Origin: Nitrospirota bacterium | GTDB lineage: Bacteria; Nitrospirota; 9FT-COMBO-42-15; HDB-SIOI813 | Direction: 5' to 3' | NCBI GenBank assembly: GCA_016212215.1 | Contig: JACRGV010000009.1 | Location: forward strand, 63-64,062 | DNA: 64,000 nucleotides | Shown: in pieces, positions 8,761 to 63,426 of the stretch | Numbering within the stretch: position 1 is the stretch's first letter | How the letters are laid out: each line of letters begins with the position of its first letter | The notes under the pieces: generated by a model | What the model saw: only the letters and a program-made list of their open reading frames with translations | Told to the model about the DNA's origin: nothing | The model's database searches: none | Program-made: the position numbers and the translations under genes

Positions 8761-11304
8761 ATGGTTAGGAATTTATTAAACATTCTTGGGTTGATATTAA
8801 TATACTATCCTTTCAGATGGATTTGTTCCTGCCTTTCATTTAGTAAAGCAATATATTTCGCTGAAGTTATTGCGATGATTCACTCAAAACTCAATGTTAC
8901 CCCTGTACCGCAGATTAAAAAGGGTATTAATAGTATTATGGAGAACAGATGGTCTTCAAAACAGGTTAATGATGTTATTATTGCAAATCTGACTACAAGG
9001 TATATTCATCTTGTAGAGTTATTTCTTGCCGGCAGGGTTTCCGCAGATAATATAGATGTCAGGGTCAGTTCTATATGCGGACTTGAGCATCTTGATTCTG
9101 CCATAAAACTTAATAAGGGAGTAATTTTATTGAGTTTTCACTTAGGGTCCTACGGGATACCGCTTGCGGCCTTAGGATATAAAGGATATTCTTTATTTCA
9201 ACATATAGTAGATTGGCAAGACACTCCATTAATAACACCGGATATACTCAAATATAAAGACAACACATTTTATCAACAGAATGCACCTTCTGATTTTTAT
9301 CCGGGAAGATACATCGGGACTATTGAGAAGTCAATCCTTGGAATAAAAAAACGGTGTCATTCTTTTTTGCCTGTTAAGATGCTGTATCATAAAGAGAAAC
9401 ATTATGCAAGGAATCTATTGAGGTGTTTAGGAGAAAACAGCATACTTTCAATTATGGGTGATGGATCAAAGGGGTCGCGTTTTACTAATGTAGATTTTCT
9501 GGGAAAGAAGATTTCATTTTCAACAGGGCCTGCTTCTCTTGCGGCTATAACCGGCGCTGCAATACTGCCTGTATTTACAATCAGAGAGAATGATAGGAGA
9601 CACAAGGTAATAATTCACTCACCTATATTTGTGAAAAGGAAGGATTCCGATTCAATAGAAGATGCTGTAGCCGCGTATACAGCACTACTTGAAAATTATG
9701 TAATGGAGTATCCAGGTCACTGGTATACATGGGATAGATTAACTGTAACGAGAGATTCAGCCGGCGAGGAGGTAATTCAGCCTGTTGTAAAGAAGAGTTT
9801 TTCTGATGAGACTATTTTGAGTCAGAATCCACCTATGAAACAGTCTCAACGTATAGCAAAGAATATTGTAACAGGAGTACTTGGTGAGGCATTAGGTGCA
9901 GTTCTACATCTCCTGACCATTGTGTCCATTGCCCGTTATCTTGGGACCTCCGGTTTTGGAGAATATGCATTTGTAATGGCATTTGTCGGTATTTTTGAGA
10001 TTGCTGCCGACCTCGGCCTGCGCAATATTTTTATCAGAGAGATTGCTGTTGATAAGGAGAATGTATCCCGTCATCTCGGGATTATGAAATTGATGATATG
10101 GGCCTTTTCTATTTTATCTTTTTTATTGATTGTCATTATAATAAACATTGTATCTTCGTCACATGAAATTATTATATCCAGTTATATTGCAGGGCTTGCA
10201 GCCCTTTCTACATTTCATGCGGTGGGATACGGGGCTGTATGTCGAGCCTTTGAAGACATGGAATACAATGCCGTTGGTTTTACCTTACATAAAACCGTGC
10301 TCTTTGGATTGATCTCTCTTGCAATATGGTTTCATACCAATATGTCGCAGATGTTCTTCGCCTATCTAGGGGCAAATATATTTTTATGGATTTATTATTA
10401 TTTGGTTGTAAGGTTTAAGTATGTAAAACCACGGATGATCTGGGATCCGAGAGGCGCATGGTACATGTTCAGGGAGGCTGTCCCGCTTGGAATTGCCGAA
10501 ATTATCCGTAAGGTAACATGGCAGGTAGATACTATCATTCTTTCGATGATTAGTACCTCGACAGCGGTGGGCCTATTCAATGCTGCTTACAAGGTAATAC
10601 AGGCGATTAATCTGATCCCGATTACTCTTGCCCATCCTCTATTTCCAATGTTTGCACGTCTGGGAAAAGAATCTCCCAGGAAGCTATTTGAGGCACATGA
10701 CAAGGCTATAAAGATGTTATTCTCAATAGGGTTACCTATGGCAGTCATACTCACTGTTTATGCTGATTTGACGATAGCCCTTCTGTTCGGCCCTAAGTTC
10801 CATGACGCAGTACCTGCACTTCAGCTTATGAGTTGGGCACTGTTCTTTCTATTCCCGACATCGTTGTATGTTTATCTTTTTACCTCGATTGGAAAACAGA
10901 AATTATTTACCGTTGCCTCTTTCTCATGCCTCGGCATTAACATTCTTATAGATTTCCTGCTGATTCCATATATGAGCTTCATCGGGGCCTGTTTCGGTAC
11001 GCTATTGTCAGAGGCGACACTATGCGGTGTTGGTGTTTATTTTATTCATAAAATGGGTCATAAAGTATCATGGTCCGGTATTGCAGGAAAACCTTTTATT
11101 GCAGGATTGTTATTAGTTGTTTTACTGTATTTCACAAGACACCTTCCGTTAATATGGCAGGTCTCAGGTTTTGTATCCGGAATGGGTGTATATGTATACG
11201 CGCTGTTTATTATGAATGTATTTTCAAAGAATGAGATAGATATGATTATCGAGGGTGCCTCTTTCGGTCTAAAGAAGGTCAGGACGTCTTCCATAATAAA
11301 ATAA
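8761..11304 (+). CDS. Fusion ORF: LpxL/HtrB-like lipid acyltransferase (N) + Wzx/MOP-family polysaccharide flippase (C)
   Basis: N-terminal ~350 aa has the lysophospholipid/lipid A acyltransferase 'HLGS' block region. From internal ATG 9835 (MKQSQRIAKNIVTGVLGEALG...LGTSGFGEY) onward it is a 12-14 TM MOP flippase. No stop between domains; either a true fusion or the flippase initiates at 9835. Confidence 0.6.
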   Translation: MVRNLLNILGLILIYYPFRWICSCLSFSKAIYFAEVIAMIHSKLNVTPVPQIKKGINSIMENRWSSKQVNDVIIANLTTRYIHLVELFLAGRVSADNIDVRVSSICGLEHLDSAIKLNKGVILLSFHLGSYGIPLAALGYKGYSLFQHIVDWQDTPLITPDILKYKDNTFYQQNAPSDFYPGRYIGTIEKSILGIKKRCHSFLPVKMLYHKEKHYARNLLRCLGENSILSIMGDGSKGSRFTNVDFLGKKISFSTGPASLAAITGAAILPVFTIRENDRRHKVIIHSPIFVKRKDSDSIEDAVAAYTALLENYVMEYPGHWYTWDRLTVTRDSAGEEVIQPVVKKSFSDETILSQNPPMKQSQRIAKNIVTGVLGEALGAVLHLLTIVSIARYLGTSGFGEYAFVMAFVGIFEIAADLGLRNIFIREIAVDKENVSRHLGIMKLMIWAFSILSFLLIVIIINIVSSSHEIIISSYIAGLAALSTFHAVGYGAVCRAFEDMEYNAVGFTLHKTVLFGLISLAIWFHTNMSQMFFAYLGANIFLWIYYYLVVRFKYVKPRMIWDPRGAWYMFREAVPLGIAEIIRKVTWQVDTIILSMISTSTAVGLFNAAYKVIQAINLIPITLAHPLFPMFARLGKESPRKLFEAHDKAIKMLFSIGLPMAVILTVYADLTIALLFGPKFHDAVPALQLMSWALFFLFPTSLYVYLFTSIGKQKLFTVASFSCLGINILIDFLLIPYMSFIGACFGTLLSEATLCGVGVYFIHKMGHKVSWSGIAGKPFIAGLLLVVLLYFTRHLPLIWQVSGFVSGMGVYVYALFIMNVFSKNEIDMIIEGASFGLKKVRTSSIIK

Positions 11305-34993: not shown

Positions 34994-35042
34994 CAAACAG
35001 TAAGCAGGTAGCAGGAAGCAGTAAAAAAAAGAATTCCCTCCC

Positions 35043-42621: not shown

Positions 42622-42697
42622 GAAGATTGATGCTATAGGCAAGAATTAAGAAGTAAGAAGCAAGAAGATAGAGACACAAGTTAGAGAAAAAAAGATA

Positions 42698-50726: not shown

Positions 50727-51281
50727 ATGAGAAAGAAACAGATTAAAAGACTATTACTGGCAGGCATAATGACAGCTTGTGTTGCAGGTGTTACCATGAG
50801 CGGTAATTCTTTTGCAGCAGAAGGGACAAATGCCGCAGAAGAAAATCAGGCAATCATGATACTCGAATCAGTAAGGCAGAATTACCTTGCAAGTGTTAGG
50901 TTAGAGTCGCTCAAATCAAAGAACACATTACCATCAAAGAGCCACGCAGACAGCCCTGCTCAGGCATGGTTAAAGAGGGTAAAACCGAGTGAAGTTAATA
51001 TGGTAACCAATAGATATACACAATCGGAACAGAGCGCAGTCCGGATGGAAGGTAAATTGTATTTTACCTCCGGCGATGCATACATTACTAATCTAAAGCA
51101 GAATCCATCAATCCGTTTTGCAAAAGACCCGATTTCAGGGCGGACAGTAGACAAGGCAGAGGCAGCGATATATATTGATGCATCCGGAAGGGCATTATAT
51201 TTCAAGACAGATGATTCATTTAAAAACTTTATAGCCCTTGCTGATACTGGAACAGTGTTCGGGTATTCACAACCAAGGTAG
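50727..51281 (+). CDS. Exported hypothetical protein
   Basis: Signal peptide (MRKKQIKRLLLAGIMTACVAGVTMSGNSFAAEG). No confident domain; the 3' end abuts a repeat cluster. Confidence 0.45.
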   Translation: MRKKQIKRLLLAGIMTACVAGVTMSGNSFAAEGTNAAEENQAIMILESVRQNYLASVRLESLKSKNTLPSKSHADSPAQAWLKRVKPSEVNMVTNRYTQSEQSAVRMEGKLYFTSGDAYITNLKQNPSIRFAKDPISGRTVDKAEAAIYIDASGRALYFKTDDSFKNFIALADTGTVFGYSQPR

Positions 51282-51294
51282 AACTAACGAAAAC

Positions 51295-51410
51295 AACCCC
51301 CATCCCCACCCTAACCCTCCCCTTGAAGGGCAGGGAAATTTCCTCTCCCTCAGGGAGAGGATTAAAGCTTGCCCCCGAAGTAGTTATCGGGGGGGTGAGG
51401 GTGGGGTTTT
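51295..51410. repeat. BIME-like units (inverse-type)
   Basis: 'ccccatccccaccctaaccctccccttgaagggcaggg…ctctccctcagggagagg…gggggtgagggtggggtt'. Confidence 0.75.
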
Positions 51411-51431
51411 CTTTGCCCTTATATTAGAGGA

Positions 51432-51680
51432 GTGAAAATGGGTAACAATGTCTCCGACAAATTATCTATAATTGAAATCCTCGAAGAAGCCATCAAAAAA
51501 GAGCATGCATCCTGTGAGTTTTACAACAATGCTGCTTCTTCCGCTCTAAAACCTTCATCAAAAAAGATGTTCCATAAACTCGCAGAGATGGAGATGGGAC
51601 ATGCCAATGAACTTAAAAGGCACCTGTTAGATGTTGAGGCTCAGTTGCTCATTGACAAGGCTTTAACATCGAATTTCTGA
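51432..51680 (+). CDS. Small ferritin/rubrerythrin-like protein
   Basis: Two E-x2-H diiron-type motifs (EAIKKEH..., EMEMGHANE) in an 82-aa helical protein. Low confidence. Confidence 0.4.
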   Translation: MKMGNNVSDKLSIIEILEEAIKKEHASCEFYNNAASSALKPSSKKMFHKLAEMEMGHANELKRHLLDVEAQLLIDKALTSNF

Positions 51681-51682
51681 TA

Positions 51683-52040
51683 AACCCTCATGAGCGAGGC
51701 GCTCACAAAGGACAATGAAAACCCCACCCTCACCCTAACCCTCTCCCTGAGGGAGAGGGGGCTATGTTGATTCCCTCCCCTTCAAGGGGAGGGGTAGGGT
51801 GGGGATGGGGTTGATTTTTGGATGAACCGCCATGAGCCTTCGGCTCACAAAGGTACATGAAAATGAGGCCCCCTCACCCGGAGCCCCCCTCCTGCCTCCC
51901 CCCGCAAAGGAGGGGGGAGAAATTTGGTAGGAATTTAATTGCAGCTCTCCCGCCAGGGGAGAGGGATGCTAAGTTTTTCCCCCTCCCTTGACGGGAGGGG
52001 GTTAGGGGGAGGGTGAGCTATGGAGATTTTCGGATGAACT
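51683..52040. repeat. Composite BIME-like cluster (at least 5 units)
   Basis: Linker hairpins with compensatory stems (tgagcg-ag-gcgctca; tgagcc-ttc-ggctca). Ends with the 'gattttcggATGaa' module. Confidence 0.8.
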
Positions 52041-52076: not shown

Positions 52077-53054
52077 GTGAGGAAGATGGATATTGAAAAG
52101 AGAGACCTTCTTCAGTTGTACTACTATCTTAAATTGACCCGGAGCGTTGAAAACCGTGTTACAGCATTATACCGGCAGGGAAAGATCCTTGGCGGGGTAT
52201 GGACCAGCAATGGTATGGAGGCCATATCTGTCGGATACTCATACGCCCTTGGGATTAATGATGTCATTGCACCATATTTCCGGGACATGGGGGCATACCT
52301 TGTAAGGGGCATAACCCCTAAAAGGATTTTTGCACAGTACTTAGGTAAGAAGACCGGCGTAACAGGCGGCAAAGAGGGAAATGTGCATGTCGGTGATATT
52401 AACCTGAATGTTCTGGGTTATCCGAGTCATCTTGCTGATAACTATCCTGTTGCAGTCGGGGTTGCCCTTTCATTTAAGGTTAGAAATGAAAAACGTGTTG
52501 TTGCCGCATGTACAGGAGATGGGGGCACAAGCAGGGGTGATTTCCATGAGGCATTGAATATGGCATCTGTATGGAAGGTGCCTGTAGTATTTTTCTGCAA
52601 TAACAATCAGTATGCCTATTCAACCCCATTGAAATTGCAGATGGCTATTGAAAATGTCGCTGACCGTGCATTGGCTTATGGAATCCCATCGGAGGTTGTG
52701 GATGGCAATGATGTTATTGCAGTGTATAATGCCGCAAAGAATGCTTATGATAGGGCACGGTCAGGTGAAGGGCCTTCCTTTATTGAATGTAAGACCATGC
52801 GTATGCACGGACATTCAGAACACGATGCAGCAAAATACGTCCCGCTGGAGCTTTTGGAAGAGTGGAAGAAAAAAGACCCTGTAATTAAAATGGAACATTA
52901 TTTAACAACTAACAAAATAGCAACACAAGAGGAGCTTTTGGTCTTGGACGAACGCATAAAAAATGAGATTCAGGCCGCAGAAGAGTTTGCTGAAAACAGC
53001 CCGCTTCCTGAAGGAAGGGATGCATTGGAAGGGGTGTATGCAACGGCATTGTAG
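52077..53054 (+). CDS. 2-oxoacid dehydrogenase E1 component alpha subunit (TPP-dependent; pyruvate / branched-chain / acetoin type)
   Basis: TPP-binding 'GDGGTSRGDFHEALNMASVWKVPVVFFCNNNQYA'. The phospho-loop-equivalent region is 'MRMHGHSEHD'. Confidence 0.8.
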   Translation: MRKMDIEKRDLLQLYYYLKLTRSVENRVTALYRQGKILGGVWTSNGMEAISVGYSYALGINDVIAPYFRDMGAYLVRGITPKRIFAQYLGKKTGVTGGKEGNVHVGDINLNVLGYPSHLADNYPVAVGVALSFKVRNEKRVVAACTGDGGTSRGDFHEALNMASVWKVPVVFFCNNNQYAYSTPLKLQMAIENVADRALAYGIPSEVVDGNDVIAVYNAAKNAYDRARSGEGPSFIECKTMRMHGHSEHDAAKYVPLELLEEWKKKDPVIKMEHYLTTNKIATQEELLVLDERIKNEIQAAEEFAENSPLPEGRDALEGVYATAL

Positions 53055-53140
53055 AGATGAGCGTAGGGGAGAAGTAAGAAGTTAGAAGTAAGAAGTTAGA
53101 AGCAAGAAGTAAGAAGTTAGAAGTAAGAAGGCTGAAGACT
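53055..53140. repeat. Heptamer tandem repeat (gtaagaa/gttagaa)n, about 11 units
   Basis: 'gaagtaagaagttagaagtaagaagttagaagcaagaagtaagaagttagaagtaagaaggctgaag', immediately after the E1alpha stop. Confidence 0.8.
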
Positions 53141-53289
53141 GGAGGTAGGAGTCCGGAACAAGATTTTTTAACTCAGACAGGACCATCTGTCATCCCCGAG
53201 TTCCTCTATCGGGGATATAGCTTATATAAAAACAGATTCCCGCTTAATGACTGCGGGAATGACAATAGAGGTACGAAAATTGGAGGGTT

Positions 53290-54261
53290 ATGGAGATTAC
53301 ATATCTTGAGGCAATACGGCAGGCTTTGGATGAAGAGTTAGCACGGGATAAGGATGTGTTTCTGCTTGGTGAGGATATTGGAAACTATGGTGGGGCATTC
53401 CGTGTTACAGAGGGGTTTTATGAGAAGTATGGGAGGTGGAGGATTATTGATACGCCGCTTTCTGAATAAGGCTTTACCGGCGCTGCGATAGGTGCGGCAT
53501 TGATGGGGATGAGACCGGTTGTTGAGATGCAGTTTGCAGATTTTATCTCCTGTGCCTTTGACCAGATTGTAAATGTGGCGGCAAAAAATTATTACAGGTG
53601 GGGAGGTAAAACACCAATGGTTATCAGGGCGCCTTTTGGAGGAAATGTACACGGCGGTGCATTCCACTCACAGTGTCCGGAAGGGTGGTTCTTCAATGTA
53701 CCGGGATTAAAGATCGTGGCCCCATCCAACCCTTATGATGCAAAGGGGCTTTTGAAATCTGCAATCAGGGATGATGACCCTGTTATATATTTTGAACACA
53801 AGTTTCTTTATCGCAGGATAAAAGGGGATGTCCCTGATAATGATTATGTAGTCCCCCTTGGAAAGGTAAATGTTGTAAGGGAAGGTGAGGATATTTCTAT
53901 AATAACTTATGGTGCAATGACGCACATTGCCTTAGAGGCATCAAAGACCCTTGGAGATGACGGGATAAGTGCAGAGATAGTGGATTTAAGGACACTTTTA
54001 CCGCTTGATAAAGAAGGAATTTATAAATCTGTTAAAAAGACCAACAAGGTCATTGTCCTGTATGAAACAGCAAAGACAGGCGGTATCGGCGCTGAGGTCT
54101 CAGCATTAATTGCAGAGGATATGTTTGAATACCTTGACAGCCCCGTAGTCCGCATCGCTGCACCCGATACACCGGTACCATTCAGTCCCCCATTAGAAGA
54201 ATTCTATCTGCCTAAGGCAGAAGATGTGGTGAAGGCCGCGAGGAGACTGGCAGCTTATTAA
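53290..54261 (+). CDS. 2-oxoacid dehydrogenase E1 component beta subunit, interrupted by an in-frame TAA at 53467-53469 (possible pseudogene, sequencing error or recoding)
   Basis: 53290-53466 encodes [59 protein letters not shown], the canonical E1beta N-terminus. After the TAA the same frame continues [25 protein letters not shown]... (transketolase-like Pyr domain) to 54261. Confidence 0.7.
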
Positions 54262-54332
54262 GCATAGGCTGAAGGCTGAAGGTAGAAGCAAGAGGCAAGA
54301 AGTTAGAAGTTAGATTGCTATATGATCTAAAA

Positions 54333-54380
54333 TTCCCTCCCCTTCAAGGGGAGGGTTAGGGTGGGGATGGGGTTGTTTTT
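54333..54380. repeat. REP/BIME-like unit upstream of E2
   Basis: 'ccctccccttcaaggggagggttagggtggggatggggttg'. Confidence 0.8.
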
Positions 54381-54382
54381 CA

Positions 54383-55723
54383 ATGCATGAAATAATAATG
54401 CCACAGATGGGTGAAAGCGTTGTTGAAGGGACGATATTAAAGTGGCTTGTTGATGAAGGTCAGCGAGTAGAGAAAGACCATCCCCTTGTTGAAATCAGTA
54501 CAGATAAGATTGACACTGAAATACCGTCACCTTTCTCAGGGATATTAAAAACCATAGTTCACAAGCAAGATGAGACCGTTCCTGTAGGGAAAGTTATTGC
54601 GTTTATTGAGGAATTTAAGGATGATGAAAAAATACCCCCTCCCCTTAATCCCCTCCCGCGAGGGGAGGGGAAATTAATGGTGCAAACGGGGGGAGAGGGT
54701 GCTAAGCTTATCTCACCTCCCTTGAGGGGAGTTCCTTCGTTTGTCCCCTCCCCCTTGACGGGGGAGGGCCAGGGTGGGGGTGAGCAAGAGCAAAGAAATA
54801 TATTTACCCCTCTCGTAAAACGCCTCTCCAGAGAATACGGTATTGACCTGGATGAGATTAATAAGATTACCGGTACAGGTGCAGGGGGCAGGATTACGAA
54901 AGATGATATTCTGGACTATGTTGAGAGAACCCAAAAGATGCCGCTTATTGCTATTGCAAAACCATCTCCTGTTGAGGCAATAAAACCTGAAACAAGAGAA
55001 GAGATTATTCCTTTGAGCAATAAGCGAAGGATCATTGCAGAGAGGATGGTTAAAAGTAAAACAGAGATACCTCATGTCACAACAACATTCGAAGCAGACC
55101 TGACAGGTATCACCCGATTCAGGTCTTTGAATAAAGACATCATATTAAAAGAACATGGTGTTCACCTCACCTTTCTTCCTTTTATTATTAATGCTGTTAC
55201 TTCAACGATCAGGAAGTATCCCATACTTAATGCTATGTGGAATGGAAATGAGATTATAATTAAAAAATATATAAATATCGGGATAGCTGTTTCATTGGAG
55301 GACGGCCTTATAGTCCCTGTTATTAAAGATGCTGATAAAAAGGGACTGGTAGAGCTTGCAAGAGAGAGCCAGGAACTCGCAAAGCGTGCACGAGAGAAGA
55401 ACCTCGGATTGGAAGACCTGCAGGATGGGACGTTTACTATCACTAACTATGGCATTGGAGGGAGTCTGTTTGGGACTCCAATAATTCTGCCGTCACAAAC
55501 AGCAATACTAGGAATCGGTGCAATTATGAAGAGGGCTGTTGTTATAGGTGATGCCATAGCAATCAGGGACATGGTTTATCTAAGCCTCTCATTTGACCAC
55601 CGCGTTATTGACGGTGCACAGGCTGACCGGTTCATGGCAGATGTTAAAGAAGATCTGGAAGGATGGAGAGGTAAGATTGAAAAGGTGTCTGCTGATGCGT
55701 CCGGGTTTGGTGGAGTATGGTAA
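54383..55723 (+). CDS. Dihydrolipoamide acyltransferase (E2) with lipoyl domain, PSBD and catalytic domain
   Basis: Lipoyl-Lys motif 'EISTDKIDTEI', PSBD 'PLVKRLSREYGIDLDEINKITGTGAGGRITKDDI', catalytic 'SLSFDHRVIDGA'. The linker (54636-54785) is encoded by GC-rich repeat units. Confidence 0.8.
   Translation: MHEIIMPQMGESVVEGTILKWLVDEGQRVEKDHPLVEISTDKIDTEIPSPFSGILKTIVHKQDETVPVGKVIAFIEEFKDDEKIPPPLNPLPRGEGKLMVQTGGEGAKLISPPLRGVPSFVPSPLTGEGQGGGEQEQRNIFTPLVKRLSREYGIDLDEINKITGTGAGGRITKDDILDYVERTQKMPLIAIAKPSPVEAIKPETREEIIPLSNKRRIIAERMVKSKTEIPHVTTTFEADLTGITRFRSLNKDIILKEHGVHLTFLPFIINAVTSTIRKYPILNAMWNGNEIIIKKYINIGIAVSLEDGLIVPVIKDADKKGLVELARESQELAKRAREKNLGLEDLQDGTFTITNYGIGGSLFGTPIILPSQTAILGIGAIMKRAVVIGDAIAIRDMVYLSLSFDHRVIDGAQADRFMADVKEDLEGWRGKIEKVSADASGFGGVW
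54636..54785. repeat. BIME-like units located INSIDE the E2 coding sequence (lipoyl-PSBD linker), in frame
   Basis: 'ccccctccccttaatcccctcccgcgaggggaggggaaa…ggggggagagggtgctaagc…cctcccttgaggggag…cccctcccccttgacgggggagggccagggtgggggtgagc', translated as PPPLNPLPRGEGK…GGEGAKLISPPLRGVPSFVPSPLTGEGQGGGE. Confidence 0.8.
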
Positions 55724-56342
55724 GGCATGGGATATCCAGAGAGAACTATTCTTTGCAAGGTCCAACAATGAGATTGAAGATACCTTAGTCCTGCTGCAGC
55801 ATCCCCCGACTTACACGTTCGGCCGTTCAAGTGAGCGTCCAAGTGAGATAGCACAACCGTTGCTCAAAGAGTCTCCTCAGAAAGGAGACGTTAATAGCGC
55901 ATCTATCTATTTTGTAGACAGGGGAGGAGGTGCTGCCTACCACGGGCCAGGCCAGATATTGGGGTATCCTATTCTATATTTAAAGTCTTACACCCCTGAT
56001 TTTCATACATACCTGAGGATGCTTGAAGATGTAATTATAAAAACCCTTAAAGACTTTCAGATTGAATCACAAAGGATAAATGGATATACAGGTGTGTGGG
56101 TGGATAACAAAAAAATAGGTTGTATCGGCGTCAGGATTATAAAGGGGTTCACTATGCATGGGTTTTCAATAAACGTAAACAATGACCTGAGTCCTTATGA
56201 AAAGATAATTCCATGCAATATTAAAGATGTAAAGATGATGTCTATTCAAGAAATTATTGAGAGAGTGCCGGATATATCAACTGTTGAGGAAAGAATAATA
56301 AGGAATTTTTCTGAAGTATTTCATGTAATGTTTGAGATATAA
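55695..56342 (+). CDS. lipB: Octanoyltransferase (lipoyl(octanoyl) transferase)
   Basis: LipB blocks 'LLQHPPTYTFG', 'RGGGAAYHGPGQ', 'KIGCIGVRIIKGFTMHGFSINV'. Start ATG 55695 is chosen within the longer track ORF (55593); it overlaps the E2 3' end by 29 nt. Confidence 0.75.
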   Translation: MRPGLVEYGKAWDIQRELFFARSNNEIEDTLVLLQHPPTYTFGRSSERPSEIAQPLLKESPQKGDVNSASIYFVDRGGGAAYHGPGQILGYPILYLKSYTPDFHTYLRMLEDVIIKTLKDFQIESQRINGYTGVWVDNKKIGCIGVRIIKGFTMHGFSINVNNDLSPYEKIIPCNIKDVKMMSIQEIIERVPDISTVEERIIRNFSEVFHVMFEI

Positions 56343-56557: not shown

Positions 56558-57019
56558 GTGCGTCAGCAATGGCTTGACCAGCGGGAGTTGATAGATTCAA
56601 TGGTTGATAATAGTCCGGCAAGTCCTGCAGGTCTTCCATTAAAGAAAGGCAGGGAGGTCAACCTGATTGACCCTGCTATAATGGAAATACCAAGTACGAT
56701 TACTATAAGCCGAAATAACAAAAATACCATTGCCAATGGTGCAGGAGGAAGTGTTCTTGCTGAACCTGCTGCTGCAAGCGAAGGGGCAGAAGTTTTTTAT
56801 ACAGGAAATAATTATGCATCATATTCTACAAATGGCGGCGCTATATGGGTTAATGTTCCTATACCGGCAGGTCCTGCCGATGCCTCGCTCCCATGCTGTG
56901 ATAATGATGTAATCCATGACAAAGGGCAGCAAGAAGTTAGAAGCAAGAAGTTAGAAGTAAAGATTGGCTGCCACTTCCCTATTTTTAGCTTTCCCCCCTC
57001 CATTGACGGGAGGGGTTAG
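56558..57019 (+). CDS. Hypothetical protein (possible 3' part of a disrupted secreted-protein gene beginning at 56366)
   Basis: The track ORF starts at GTG. It is in the same frame as the signal-peptide ORF 56366-56477, separated by a single TAA. The 3' end runs into a heptamer/GC-hairpin repeat. Confidence 0.3.
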   Translation: MRQQWLDQRELIDSMVDNSPASPAGLPLKKGREVNLIDPAIMEIPSTITISRNNKNTIANGAGGSVLAEPAAASEGAEVFYTGNNYASYSTNGGAIWVNVPIPAGPADASLPCCDNDVIHDKGQQEVRSKKLEVKIGCHFPIFSFPPSIDGRG

Positions 57020-57050
57020 GGGGAGGGTGAGCTATGGGTATTTCCGAGTG
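56990..57050. repeat. REP/BIME-like unit with GTG variant of the terminal start module
   Basis: 'ccccctccattgacgggaggggttagggggagggtgagctatgggtatttccgaGTGaaa'. Confidence 0.75.
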
Positions 57051-57320
57051 AAACATAAGATTATACATATCTCAATCTTATTCTCAATCTCAATCCTTAC
57101 CTTATTTTCCACCTCCTGCAATTATCAGTCAAAAGAAAAGAATGTTGATTCAATCAAAAATCTTCATAAACAAACAGAAGGCACTTATCCTTTAAATAAA
57201 GAAGAGATTAAACAGGATACAAATGTTGACTATGAGAAACCTGCCCCGCCTCTCACCCCTGAGGAAAGACAAAGATTAATTGACAGTACAGAAAAAGAAG
57301 ACAAGGACGATAAGAAATAG
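57048..57320 (+). CDS. Small lipoprotein (hypothetical)
   Basis: GTG start inside the repeat-terminal module ('tttccgaGTGaaa'). 'ILFSISILTLFSTSC' lipobox, followed by a low-complexity Lys/Glu-rich tail. Confidence 0.4.
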   Translation: MKHKIIHISILFSISILTLFSTSCNYQSKEKNVDSIKNLHKQTEGTYPLNKEEIKQDTNVDYEKPAPPLTPEERQRLIDSTEKEDKDDKK

Positions 57321-63336: not shown

Positions 63337-63426
63337 GACGTTTGCTTACCAATTTTACTTCTGTTATATTTAGCCGTACGTTTAACCTTTCCTTTTTTTT
63401 CATTTAGCATCAACACGGGGTGATTT

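Follow-up and report, generated by a model that had tools for sequence, protein, structure and literature searches.

A single in-frame TAA at codon 60 of an otherwise intact E1-beta gene in an uncultured Nitrospirota bacterium

The dehydrogenase operon and its E1-beta frame

The window, the whole 64,000-nucleotide stretch of DNA analysed here, carries a 2-oxoacid dehydrogenase operon in which E1-alpha, E1-beta and E2 are followed by lipB (Table 1). It represents a housekeeping region that also contains ilvBNC, leuA/CD/B, asd and queA, in an uncultured source bacterium with a GC content of about 40%. By E1-beta and IlvC, its nearest named relatives are MAGs that carry the label Nitrospira sp. 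or Nitrospirota; uncultured MAGs from groundwater and sediment come next. The gene order around the operon is the same as in the relative L003. The flanking E1-alpha, E2 and lipB genes, described as intact in the sequence-only reading of this DNA, are uninterrupted and retain full-length domains; E2 additionally carries an in-frame, repeat-derived insertion in a linker. The maximal lipB ORF begins at 55593, and the LipB proteins of relatives have 213 residues. Against NCBIfam models, E1-beta passes the cutoff of the PDH E1-beta subfamily, and none of the equivalog cutoffs is reached by E1-alpha or E2.

The E1-beta frame extends from ATG 53290 to the TAA at 54259–54261 and comprises 323 codons, with one internal stop and no frameshift. 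This internal TAA replaces codon 60, lies immediately 3' of the codon for Glu59 and is the sole break in the frame. Pfam assigns the 59-residue piece to positions 2–57 of the Transket_pyr profile and the downstream piece to positions 59–173, indicating that exactly one E1-beta codon has been replaced, and a complete Transketolase_C domain (1–124 of 124) follows in the downstream piece. Judged from these matches, the unbroken E1-beta homology on both sides of the TAA cannot be due to chance. The ORF and Pfam data thereby bear out three elements of the sequence-only reading, namely that the frame from ATG 53290 encodes an E1-beta N-terminus, that it stays open past the TAA as far as 54261, and that one stop has taken the place of one codon without a shift of frame.

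With Ser restored at position 60, the repaired protein scores 371.5 bits against the NCBIfam subfamily model PRK09212.1 (cutoff 321) and aligns over its whole length with solved beta subunits of the alpha2-beta2 E1 type, with E-values of 1e-94 to 1e-98. Its PDB matches are 1UM9 (T. thermophilus 2-oxo acid dehydrogenase), 3DUF/1W85 (G. stearothermophilus PDH E1p) and 1IK6. Both domains are full length and in the expected order, and the protein shares with known E1 beta subunits Glu59, Phe85, the TPLSE-x-G motif and the usual E1-alpha/E1-beta/E2 operon, here joined by lipB. Unlike them, it is not encoded by a single uninterrupted full-length ORF, the frame being broken at codon 60. Glu59 and the stacking residue Phe85 are invariant columns in an alignment of the 27 closest relatives. 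In G. stearothermophilus E1p, ThDP is activated by the invariant glutamate E59-beta, and the active site also includes F85-beta and H128-beta (PMC2663715).

Table 1. Features of the dehydrogenase operon, in window coordinates.
Feature	Position	Strand	Evidence
E1-alpha, 322 aa, intact	52086–53054	+	Pfam E1_dh 4–297/300; exact protein on Logan contig L004
E1-alpha/E1-beta spacer, 235 nt (8–9 nt in L003), with 14-nt tandem repeat at 53057–53161	53055–53289	+	
E1-beta codons 1–59, the last encoding invariant Glu59	53290–53466	+	Pfam and alignment; Logan contig L005 calls the 59-aa product as a gene of its own
Premature TAA in place of Ser60 (putative C-to-A change at 53468, from TCA)	53467–53469	+	Codon comparison with relatives
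E1-beta codons 61–323 and natural TAA, same frame, undamaged	53470–54261	+	Pfam, dN/dS, invariant columns
Fortuitous Shine-Dalgarno-like AGGTG (53490–53494), then TTG 53500 and ATG 53503	53490–53505	+	Sequence; Logan gene caller chose ATG 53503
E1-beta/E2 spacer, 121 nt (20 nt in L003), with both repeat families	54262–54382	+	
E2 dihydrolipoamide acyltransferase, 446 aa, intact	54383–55723	+	Full-length domain matches
lipB octanoyltransferase, likely from ATG 55695 (215 aa), overlapping the E2 end	55695–56342	+	Pfam LplA-B_cat; NCBIfam LipB above cutoff

Residue 60 in relatives and in a second assembly

A search of about 5.8 billion protein sequences returned only intact E1-beta relatives of 323–334 residues, the two closest being 94% and 89% identical to the window protein. 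In the alignment of the 27 best homologues, position 60 is Ser in every sequence and sits in the invariant context TPLSE-S-GFTGAA. Among the 73 species-representative genome loci listed, the best of which is 77% identical to the window E1-beta, the position is occupied by Ser (64), Ala (5), Thr (2) or Gly (2), a small residue in all 73, and wherever these loci encode Ser60 the codon is TCN. A fully degenerate DNA pattern laid across the motif retrieved 57 metagenome contigs or genes, none closer than about 75% nucleotide identity; all 57 encode Ser60, 54 with TCN and three with AGC. A strict DNA pattern around codon 60 gave no match in the metagenome collection.

The earlier expectation that other E1-beta proteins have exactly one residue at the TAA site thus holds, with Ser in each of the 27 closest homologues and in each of the 57 metagenome matches. 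No stop occurs at codon 60 in more than 150 orthologous sequences, the sole exception being L005, the window's own counterpart in the Logan assemblies. The comparison with orthologues proposed in the sequence-only reading therefore finds Ser or another small residue at codon 60 and a stop that is not shared, and a clade-wide division of the gene into two polypeptides, looked for in the same orthologues, was not seen. As in nonsense pseudogenes, an in-frame stop stands where intact orthologues carry a sense codon.

In the sister lineage nearest to the window, which is about 89% identical in nucleotide sequence and represented by four other sequencing runs, codon 60 reads TCT, TCA, TCA and TCG, and in the next clade out it reads TCA. 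With TCA, TCT and TCG in the nearest lineages, TAA can be reached by one C-to-A step from TCA. From this codon comparison, the simplest history would be a single transversion at 53468 that converted TCA into TAA.

An error of sequencing or consensus would give the same picture if the true codon 60 were TCA, the gene were intact, and the A at 53468 had been miscalled and carried into the assembly. Consistent with this, E1-beta is otherwise flawless and the stop is a singleton among the more than 150 orthologues. The organism, moreover, is seen in run SRR12113407 only, and the window assembly and the Logan contigs probably share reads. Several observations oppose such an error. Logan contig L005, from that run, is 100% identical to the window over its 1061 bp, crosses the TAA site without a break and contains the same TAA, with the 59-residue and 252-residue products called as separate genes. 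Two further Logan contigs of the run carry the window's E1-alpha (L004) and a cysteine-desulfurase-like gene; they match the window at 100% identity or code for precisely the same protein. Two different assemblies therefore agree base for base, and the recovery of the same TAA by a second assembler from raw reads argues against an artefact of assembly or polishing; an assembler artefact is unlikely to be the source of the stop. Additionally, the genes of the 64-kb window contain no other stop or frameshift of the kind expected from a poor consensus. Substitution errors are rare in a multi-read consensus, and typical long-read errors are homopolymer indels, which the clean transversion at 53468 does not resemble. 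The Logan assembly thus weakens the error explanation put forward in the sequence-only reading, and a miscalled base, although it keeps an appreciable minor share of the probability, is an unlikely origin of the TAA. The population could also be mixed at 53468. An exact look-up of the repaired Ser60 protein found it absent from a collection of about 15 billion proteins, exact look-ups of the neighbouring proteins gave no record for E2 and a short Logan contig alone for E1-alpha, and a full-text literature search found no paper for run SRR12113407.

Selection on E1-beta and decoding of the internal stop

Nei–Gojobori comparison of the window E1-beta with its nearest intact relative, at a dS of 0.48, gives a dN/dS of 0.063, next to 0.046–0.060 for pairs of intact genes. 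The ratio is 0 over the 59 codons before the TAA and 0.070 after it. Among the neighbours, E1-alpha has values of 0.076 against L001 and 0.057 against L003, E2 and LipB range from 0.10 to 0.18, and flanking genes lie near 0.09. No indels are seen in E1-beta, and the TAA is the only window-specific change at columns that are invariant in 27 relatives. The relaxed selection and further lesions of an established nonsense pseudogene are accordingly absent, and a low dN/dS combined with no second lesion fits only a very young pseudogene or a polymorphism.

The same values constrain the age of the change. Neutral drift over a fraction f of the window's branch would raise the pairwise dN/dS by about f/2; because the E1-beta ratio is not above that of E1-alpha, we infer that f is at most a few percent. 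Judged by these ratios, E1-beta appears to have been under strong purifying selection until very recently, a statement about its past, as dN/dS cannot show the present state. At a dS of about 0.48–0.5, the low ratio mostly records history before the mutation, and, more generally, a gene that combines one internal stop with a low ratio is not thereby proven to be read through.

Programmed read-through, a further explanation offered in the sequence-only reading, is not supported at any point tested: the stop is not conserved, its context is not a leaky one, and no stimulatory RNA structure or recoding element accompanies it. Specifically, TAA terminates 24 of the 45 long ORFs in the window, including E1-beta itself, and TAAG, the same tetranucleotide as at codon 60, ends eight window genes, so that UAA-G is a genuine terminator in this DNA. 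The 106 nt around and after the TAA fold no better than shuffled sequences (z = +0.51), and Rfam has no family match near the site; the downstream signature of read-through suggested as a check was thus looked for by folding and Rfam and not found. A promoter and terminator scan gave nothing above shuffled expectation, and there are no tRNA genes in the 64-kb window. Neither programmed read-through nor a reassigned code is borne out by any of the features open to testing.

A change of genetic code, by which the organism would read TAA as an amino acid, has nothing in its favour beyond the single codon. The frequent use of TAA as a terminator, at the end of E1-beta as elsewhere, opposes it, as does the lack of an in-frame TAA in any other conserved gene of the window; stop-codon usage refutes it within the window, and it deserves practically no credence. 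A systematic scan for same-frame ORF pairs split by one stop, together with Pfam analysis of essentially all long ORFs, revealed no other interrupted gene. Two same-frame junctions were considered and set aside, one at 11302 that separates two unrelated genes and one at 63421 that has no domain support. The overlapping plus-strand ORFs at 56558–57320 (153 and 118 aa), 3' of lipB, were also considered as a frameshifted gene; they have no Pfam match, span repeat copies and are probably spurious. Three other routes were considered and do not fit the site: selenocysteine and pyrrolysine insertion, which use UGA and UAG and not UAA; translational bypassing or hopping, for which matching take-off and landing codons are missing and exactly one codon is replaced; and phase-variable contingency switching, as no repeat tract lies at the TAA site.

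Among bacterial stop codons, UAA is the one least prone to leakage. Tolerated read-through would leave the gene maintained as a 'pseudo-pseudogene' if near-cognate decoding or a suppressor tRNA yielded enough full-length E1-beta. The low dN/dS on both sides of the TAA and the intact partner genes are compatible with this, and position 60 accepts Ser, Ala, Thr or Gly among the genome loci listed. A low level of translation has been documented for many bacterial genes that contain an in-frame stop (PMC9122581, PMC7918605), and the E1-beta gene resembles the stop-disrupted 'pseudo-pseudogenes' of Salmonella Typhi and Paratyphi A in that its transcription and low-level translation could continue (PMC9122581). 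It differs from them in its context, a UAA preceded by A at -1 and followed by G at +4, whereas the read-through of in-frame stops detected experimentally in Salmonella is mostly at UAG with C at -1 and +4 (Feng et al. 2022, PMC9122581). At a dS of 0.48, the low dN/dS stems from the time before the recent mutation and does not bear on the present; TAAG terminates other genes of the window; and neither RNA structure, Rfam element, window tRNA nor conservation of the stop supports suppression. Tolerated read-through is accordingly quite improbable. The more specific proposition, that UAA is read through at a useful rate which keeps the complex working and is selectively maintained, with Ser, Gln, Lys, Tyr or a similar residue inserted at codon 60, must be regarded as distinctly doubtful; if true, an uncultured lineage would be maintaining, under selection, a natural read-through of UAA in one of its core metabolic enzymes.

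A functional split gene would require the 59-residue peptide and a separately initiated protein of 252 or 253 residues to form an active beta subunit together. Gene callers do call both pieces, and the AGGTG lies 5–8 nt upstream of the TTG and ATG, about 30 nt after the TAA. These start signals, however, are codons of the conserved IGAALMGM peptide and are present in intact relatives as well; being coding sequence there, AGGTG and ATG 53503 are not an evolved start. No split relative occurs among the 27 homologues, the genome loci listed, the 57 metagenome matches or the sister lineage. In addition, the nearly invariant residues 60–71 belong to neither piece, and Glu59 would be parted from Phe85 and the active-site histidine. 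With neither a conserved split nor a dedicated ribosome-binding site and start that spare the protein's residues, a working two-piece subunit is highly improbable.

The most probable interpretation, to which we assign a probability of about 0.72, is that the TAA is a genuine and very recent nonsense mutation or allele in one sampled population. Of the explanations listed in the sequence-only reading, the recent pseudogenising point mutation is thus the favoured one, on account of the one-step path from TCA to TAA, the restriction to a single population and the otherwise full signature of purifying selection. Lone in-frame stops have been reported to occur widely in bacterial genes, most of them lasting only about as long as population polymorphisms (Belinky et al. 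2021, PMC7918605). The E1-beta stop resembles them in being a single nonsense substitution in an otherwise intact gene, with sense codons in the orthologues, a low historical dN/dS and confinement to one sampled population. It differs from the persistent stops of that survey, for which read-through was argued from persistence, in that it occurs in no orthologue (PMC7918605), and its codon is TAA. Most likely, the TAA is therefore an ordinary event of an already known kind and involves no new decoding mechanism. A pristine gene with a single stop is, at the same time, also the expected appearance of a base error or of a gene that is still translated.

Under the favoured reading of a recent nonsense allele, a C-to-A transversion would have changed codon 60 of E1-beta, a gene in an alpha2-beta2-type 2-oxoacid dehydrogenase operon, from the Ser codon TCA to TAA. 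Translation would then stop at codon 60 and leave a 59-residue peptide whose last residue is the catalytic Glu59; a restart at ATG 53503, if it occurred, would give a 252-residue fragment without residues 1–71. Since the ThDP site needs Glu59, Phe85 and the active-site histidine within one folded PYR domain, neither product is expected to form it. From this structural and functional knowledge, a null or near-null allele is expected as far as the complex is concerned, and polar effects on E2 and lipB are possible. The variant would then be a young loss of function, which is either passing through the population as a polymorphism or beginning to turn the gene into a pseudogene. Its age would be no more than a few percent of the time elapsed since the 89%-identical sister lineage split off.

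For annotation, the gene is best flagged as a disrupted E1-beta, with "internal stop, verify with reads" as the minimum, and metabolic reconstructions should not assume a working 2-oxoacid dehydrogenase complex unchecked. If the allele proved to be fixed and persistent, it would constitute a small natural experiment on whether the lineage can dispense with the complex, and not a new mechanism.

Repeat families and further observations around the operon

Two repeat families occupy the operon and its surroundings, and both are found only in the 34000–56000 part of the window, as against 1–34000. The GC content rises between the same two parts, from about 0.39 in 1–34000, which holds cell-envelope and polysaccharide genes, to about 0.44–0.48 in 34000–56000, which holds the ilv/leu and dehydrogenase operons.

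The first family is a GC-rich palindromic repeat with the core CCCTCCCCTTCAAGGGGAGGG, followed by TAGGGTGGGG; eight core matches are present where 0.01 would be expected by chance. Copies occur at 35036, 37007, 40215, 42748, 44434, 51289–52018, 54328–54381 and 56988–57052, and they occupy many of the spacers between genes in the housekeeping operons, from about 35 to 57 kb. Further copies lie inside the E2 ORF at 54624–54790, within the flexible linker that connects the lipoyl domain to the E3-binding domain, where they add about 30 in-frame residues (PPPLNPLPRGEGKLMVQTGGEGAKLISPPLRGVPSFVPSPLTGEGQGGGEQ). The E2 proteins of L002 and L003, at 424 and 419 residues respectively, are without this insertion, which on the basis of its sequence looks like a REP/MITE-like element tolerated in a coding linker. 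Weak, sub-threshold 'miRNA' matches in Rfam at 51.7–52.0 kb arise from the palindromic family. The short-read Logan contigs of the source organism appear to break at the palindromic repeats, and L004 and L005 break inside the E1-alpha/E1-beta spacer.

The second family is a purine-rich, low-complexity tandem repeat of 14 nt, GAAGTAAGAAGTTA and variants, that fills the spacers on either side of E1-beta. Besides the copies between E1-alpha and E1-beta (Table 1), it is present at 54271–54319, 56926–56974, 35656 and 42643–42667. The 89%-identical sister lineage L001 carries a similar but shorter repeat in the E1-alpha/E1-beta spacer.

Upstream of the operon, positions 2996–3607 of L003 encode a 203-residue protein, between a 184-residue ORF and a small rubrerythrin-like ORF. 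The corresponding window interval, 51281–51432, consists of about 150 nt of repeat-rich DNA, and judging from this comparison of the two sequences the gene seems to be missing from the window.

Among the relatives, a 577-bp NCBI contig in the cluster of the 59-residue fragment (P0127) encodes 88 residues with a near-identical E1-beta N-terminus and an intact Ser60, and diverges to unrelated sequence after GFTGAAIGA. It may be a chimera formed at a contig end, or may reflect an insertion in a different close relative. Finally, anammox Planctomycetota (Scalindua, Brocadia, Kuenenia and Loosdrechtia MAGs; L007, L008, L012, L027, L029 and L038) have E1-beta proteins that, among the loci listed, are 70–77% identical to that of the window, and many MAGs labelled Nitrospira or Nitrospiraceae have E1-beta proteins in a like range of 69–77%. 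These similar identities may be a sign that the operon was exchanged horizontally between anammox Planctomycetota and the Nitrospira-labelled MAGs.
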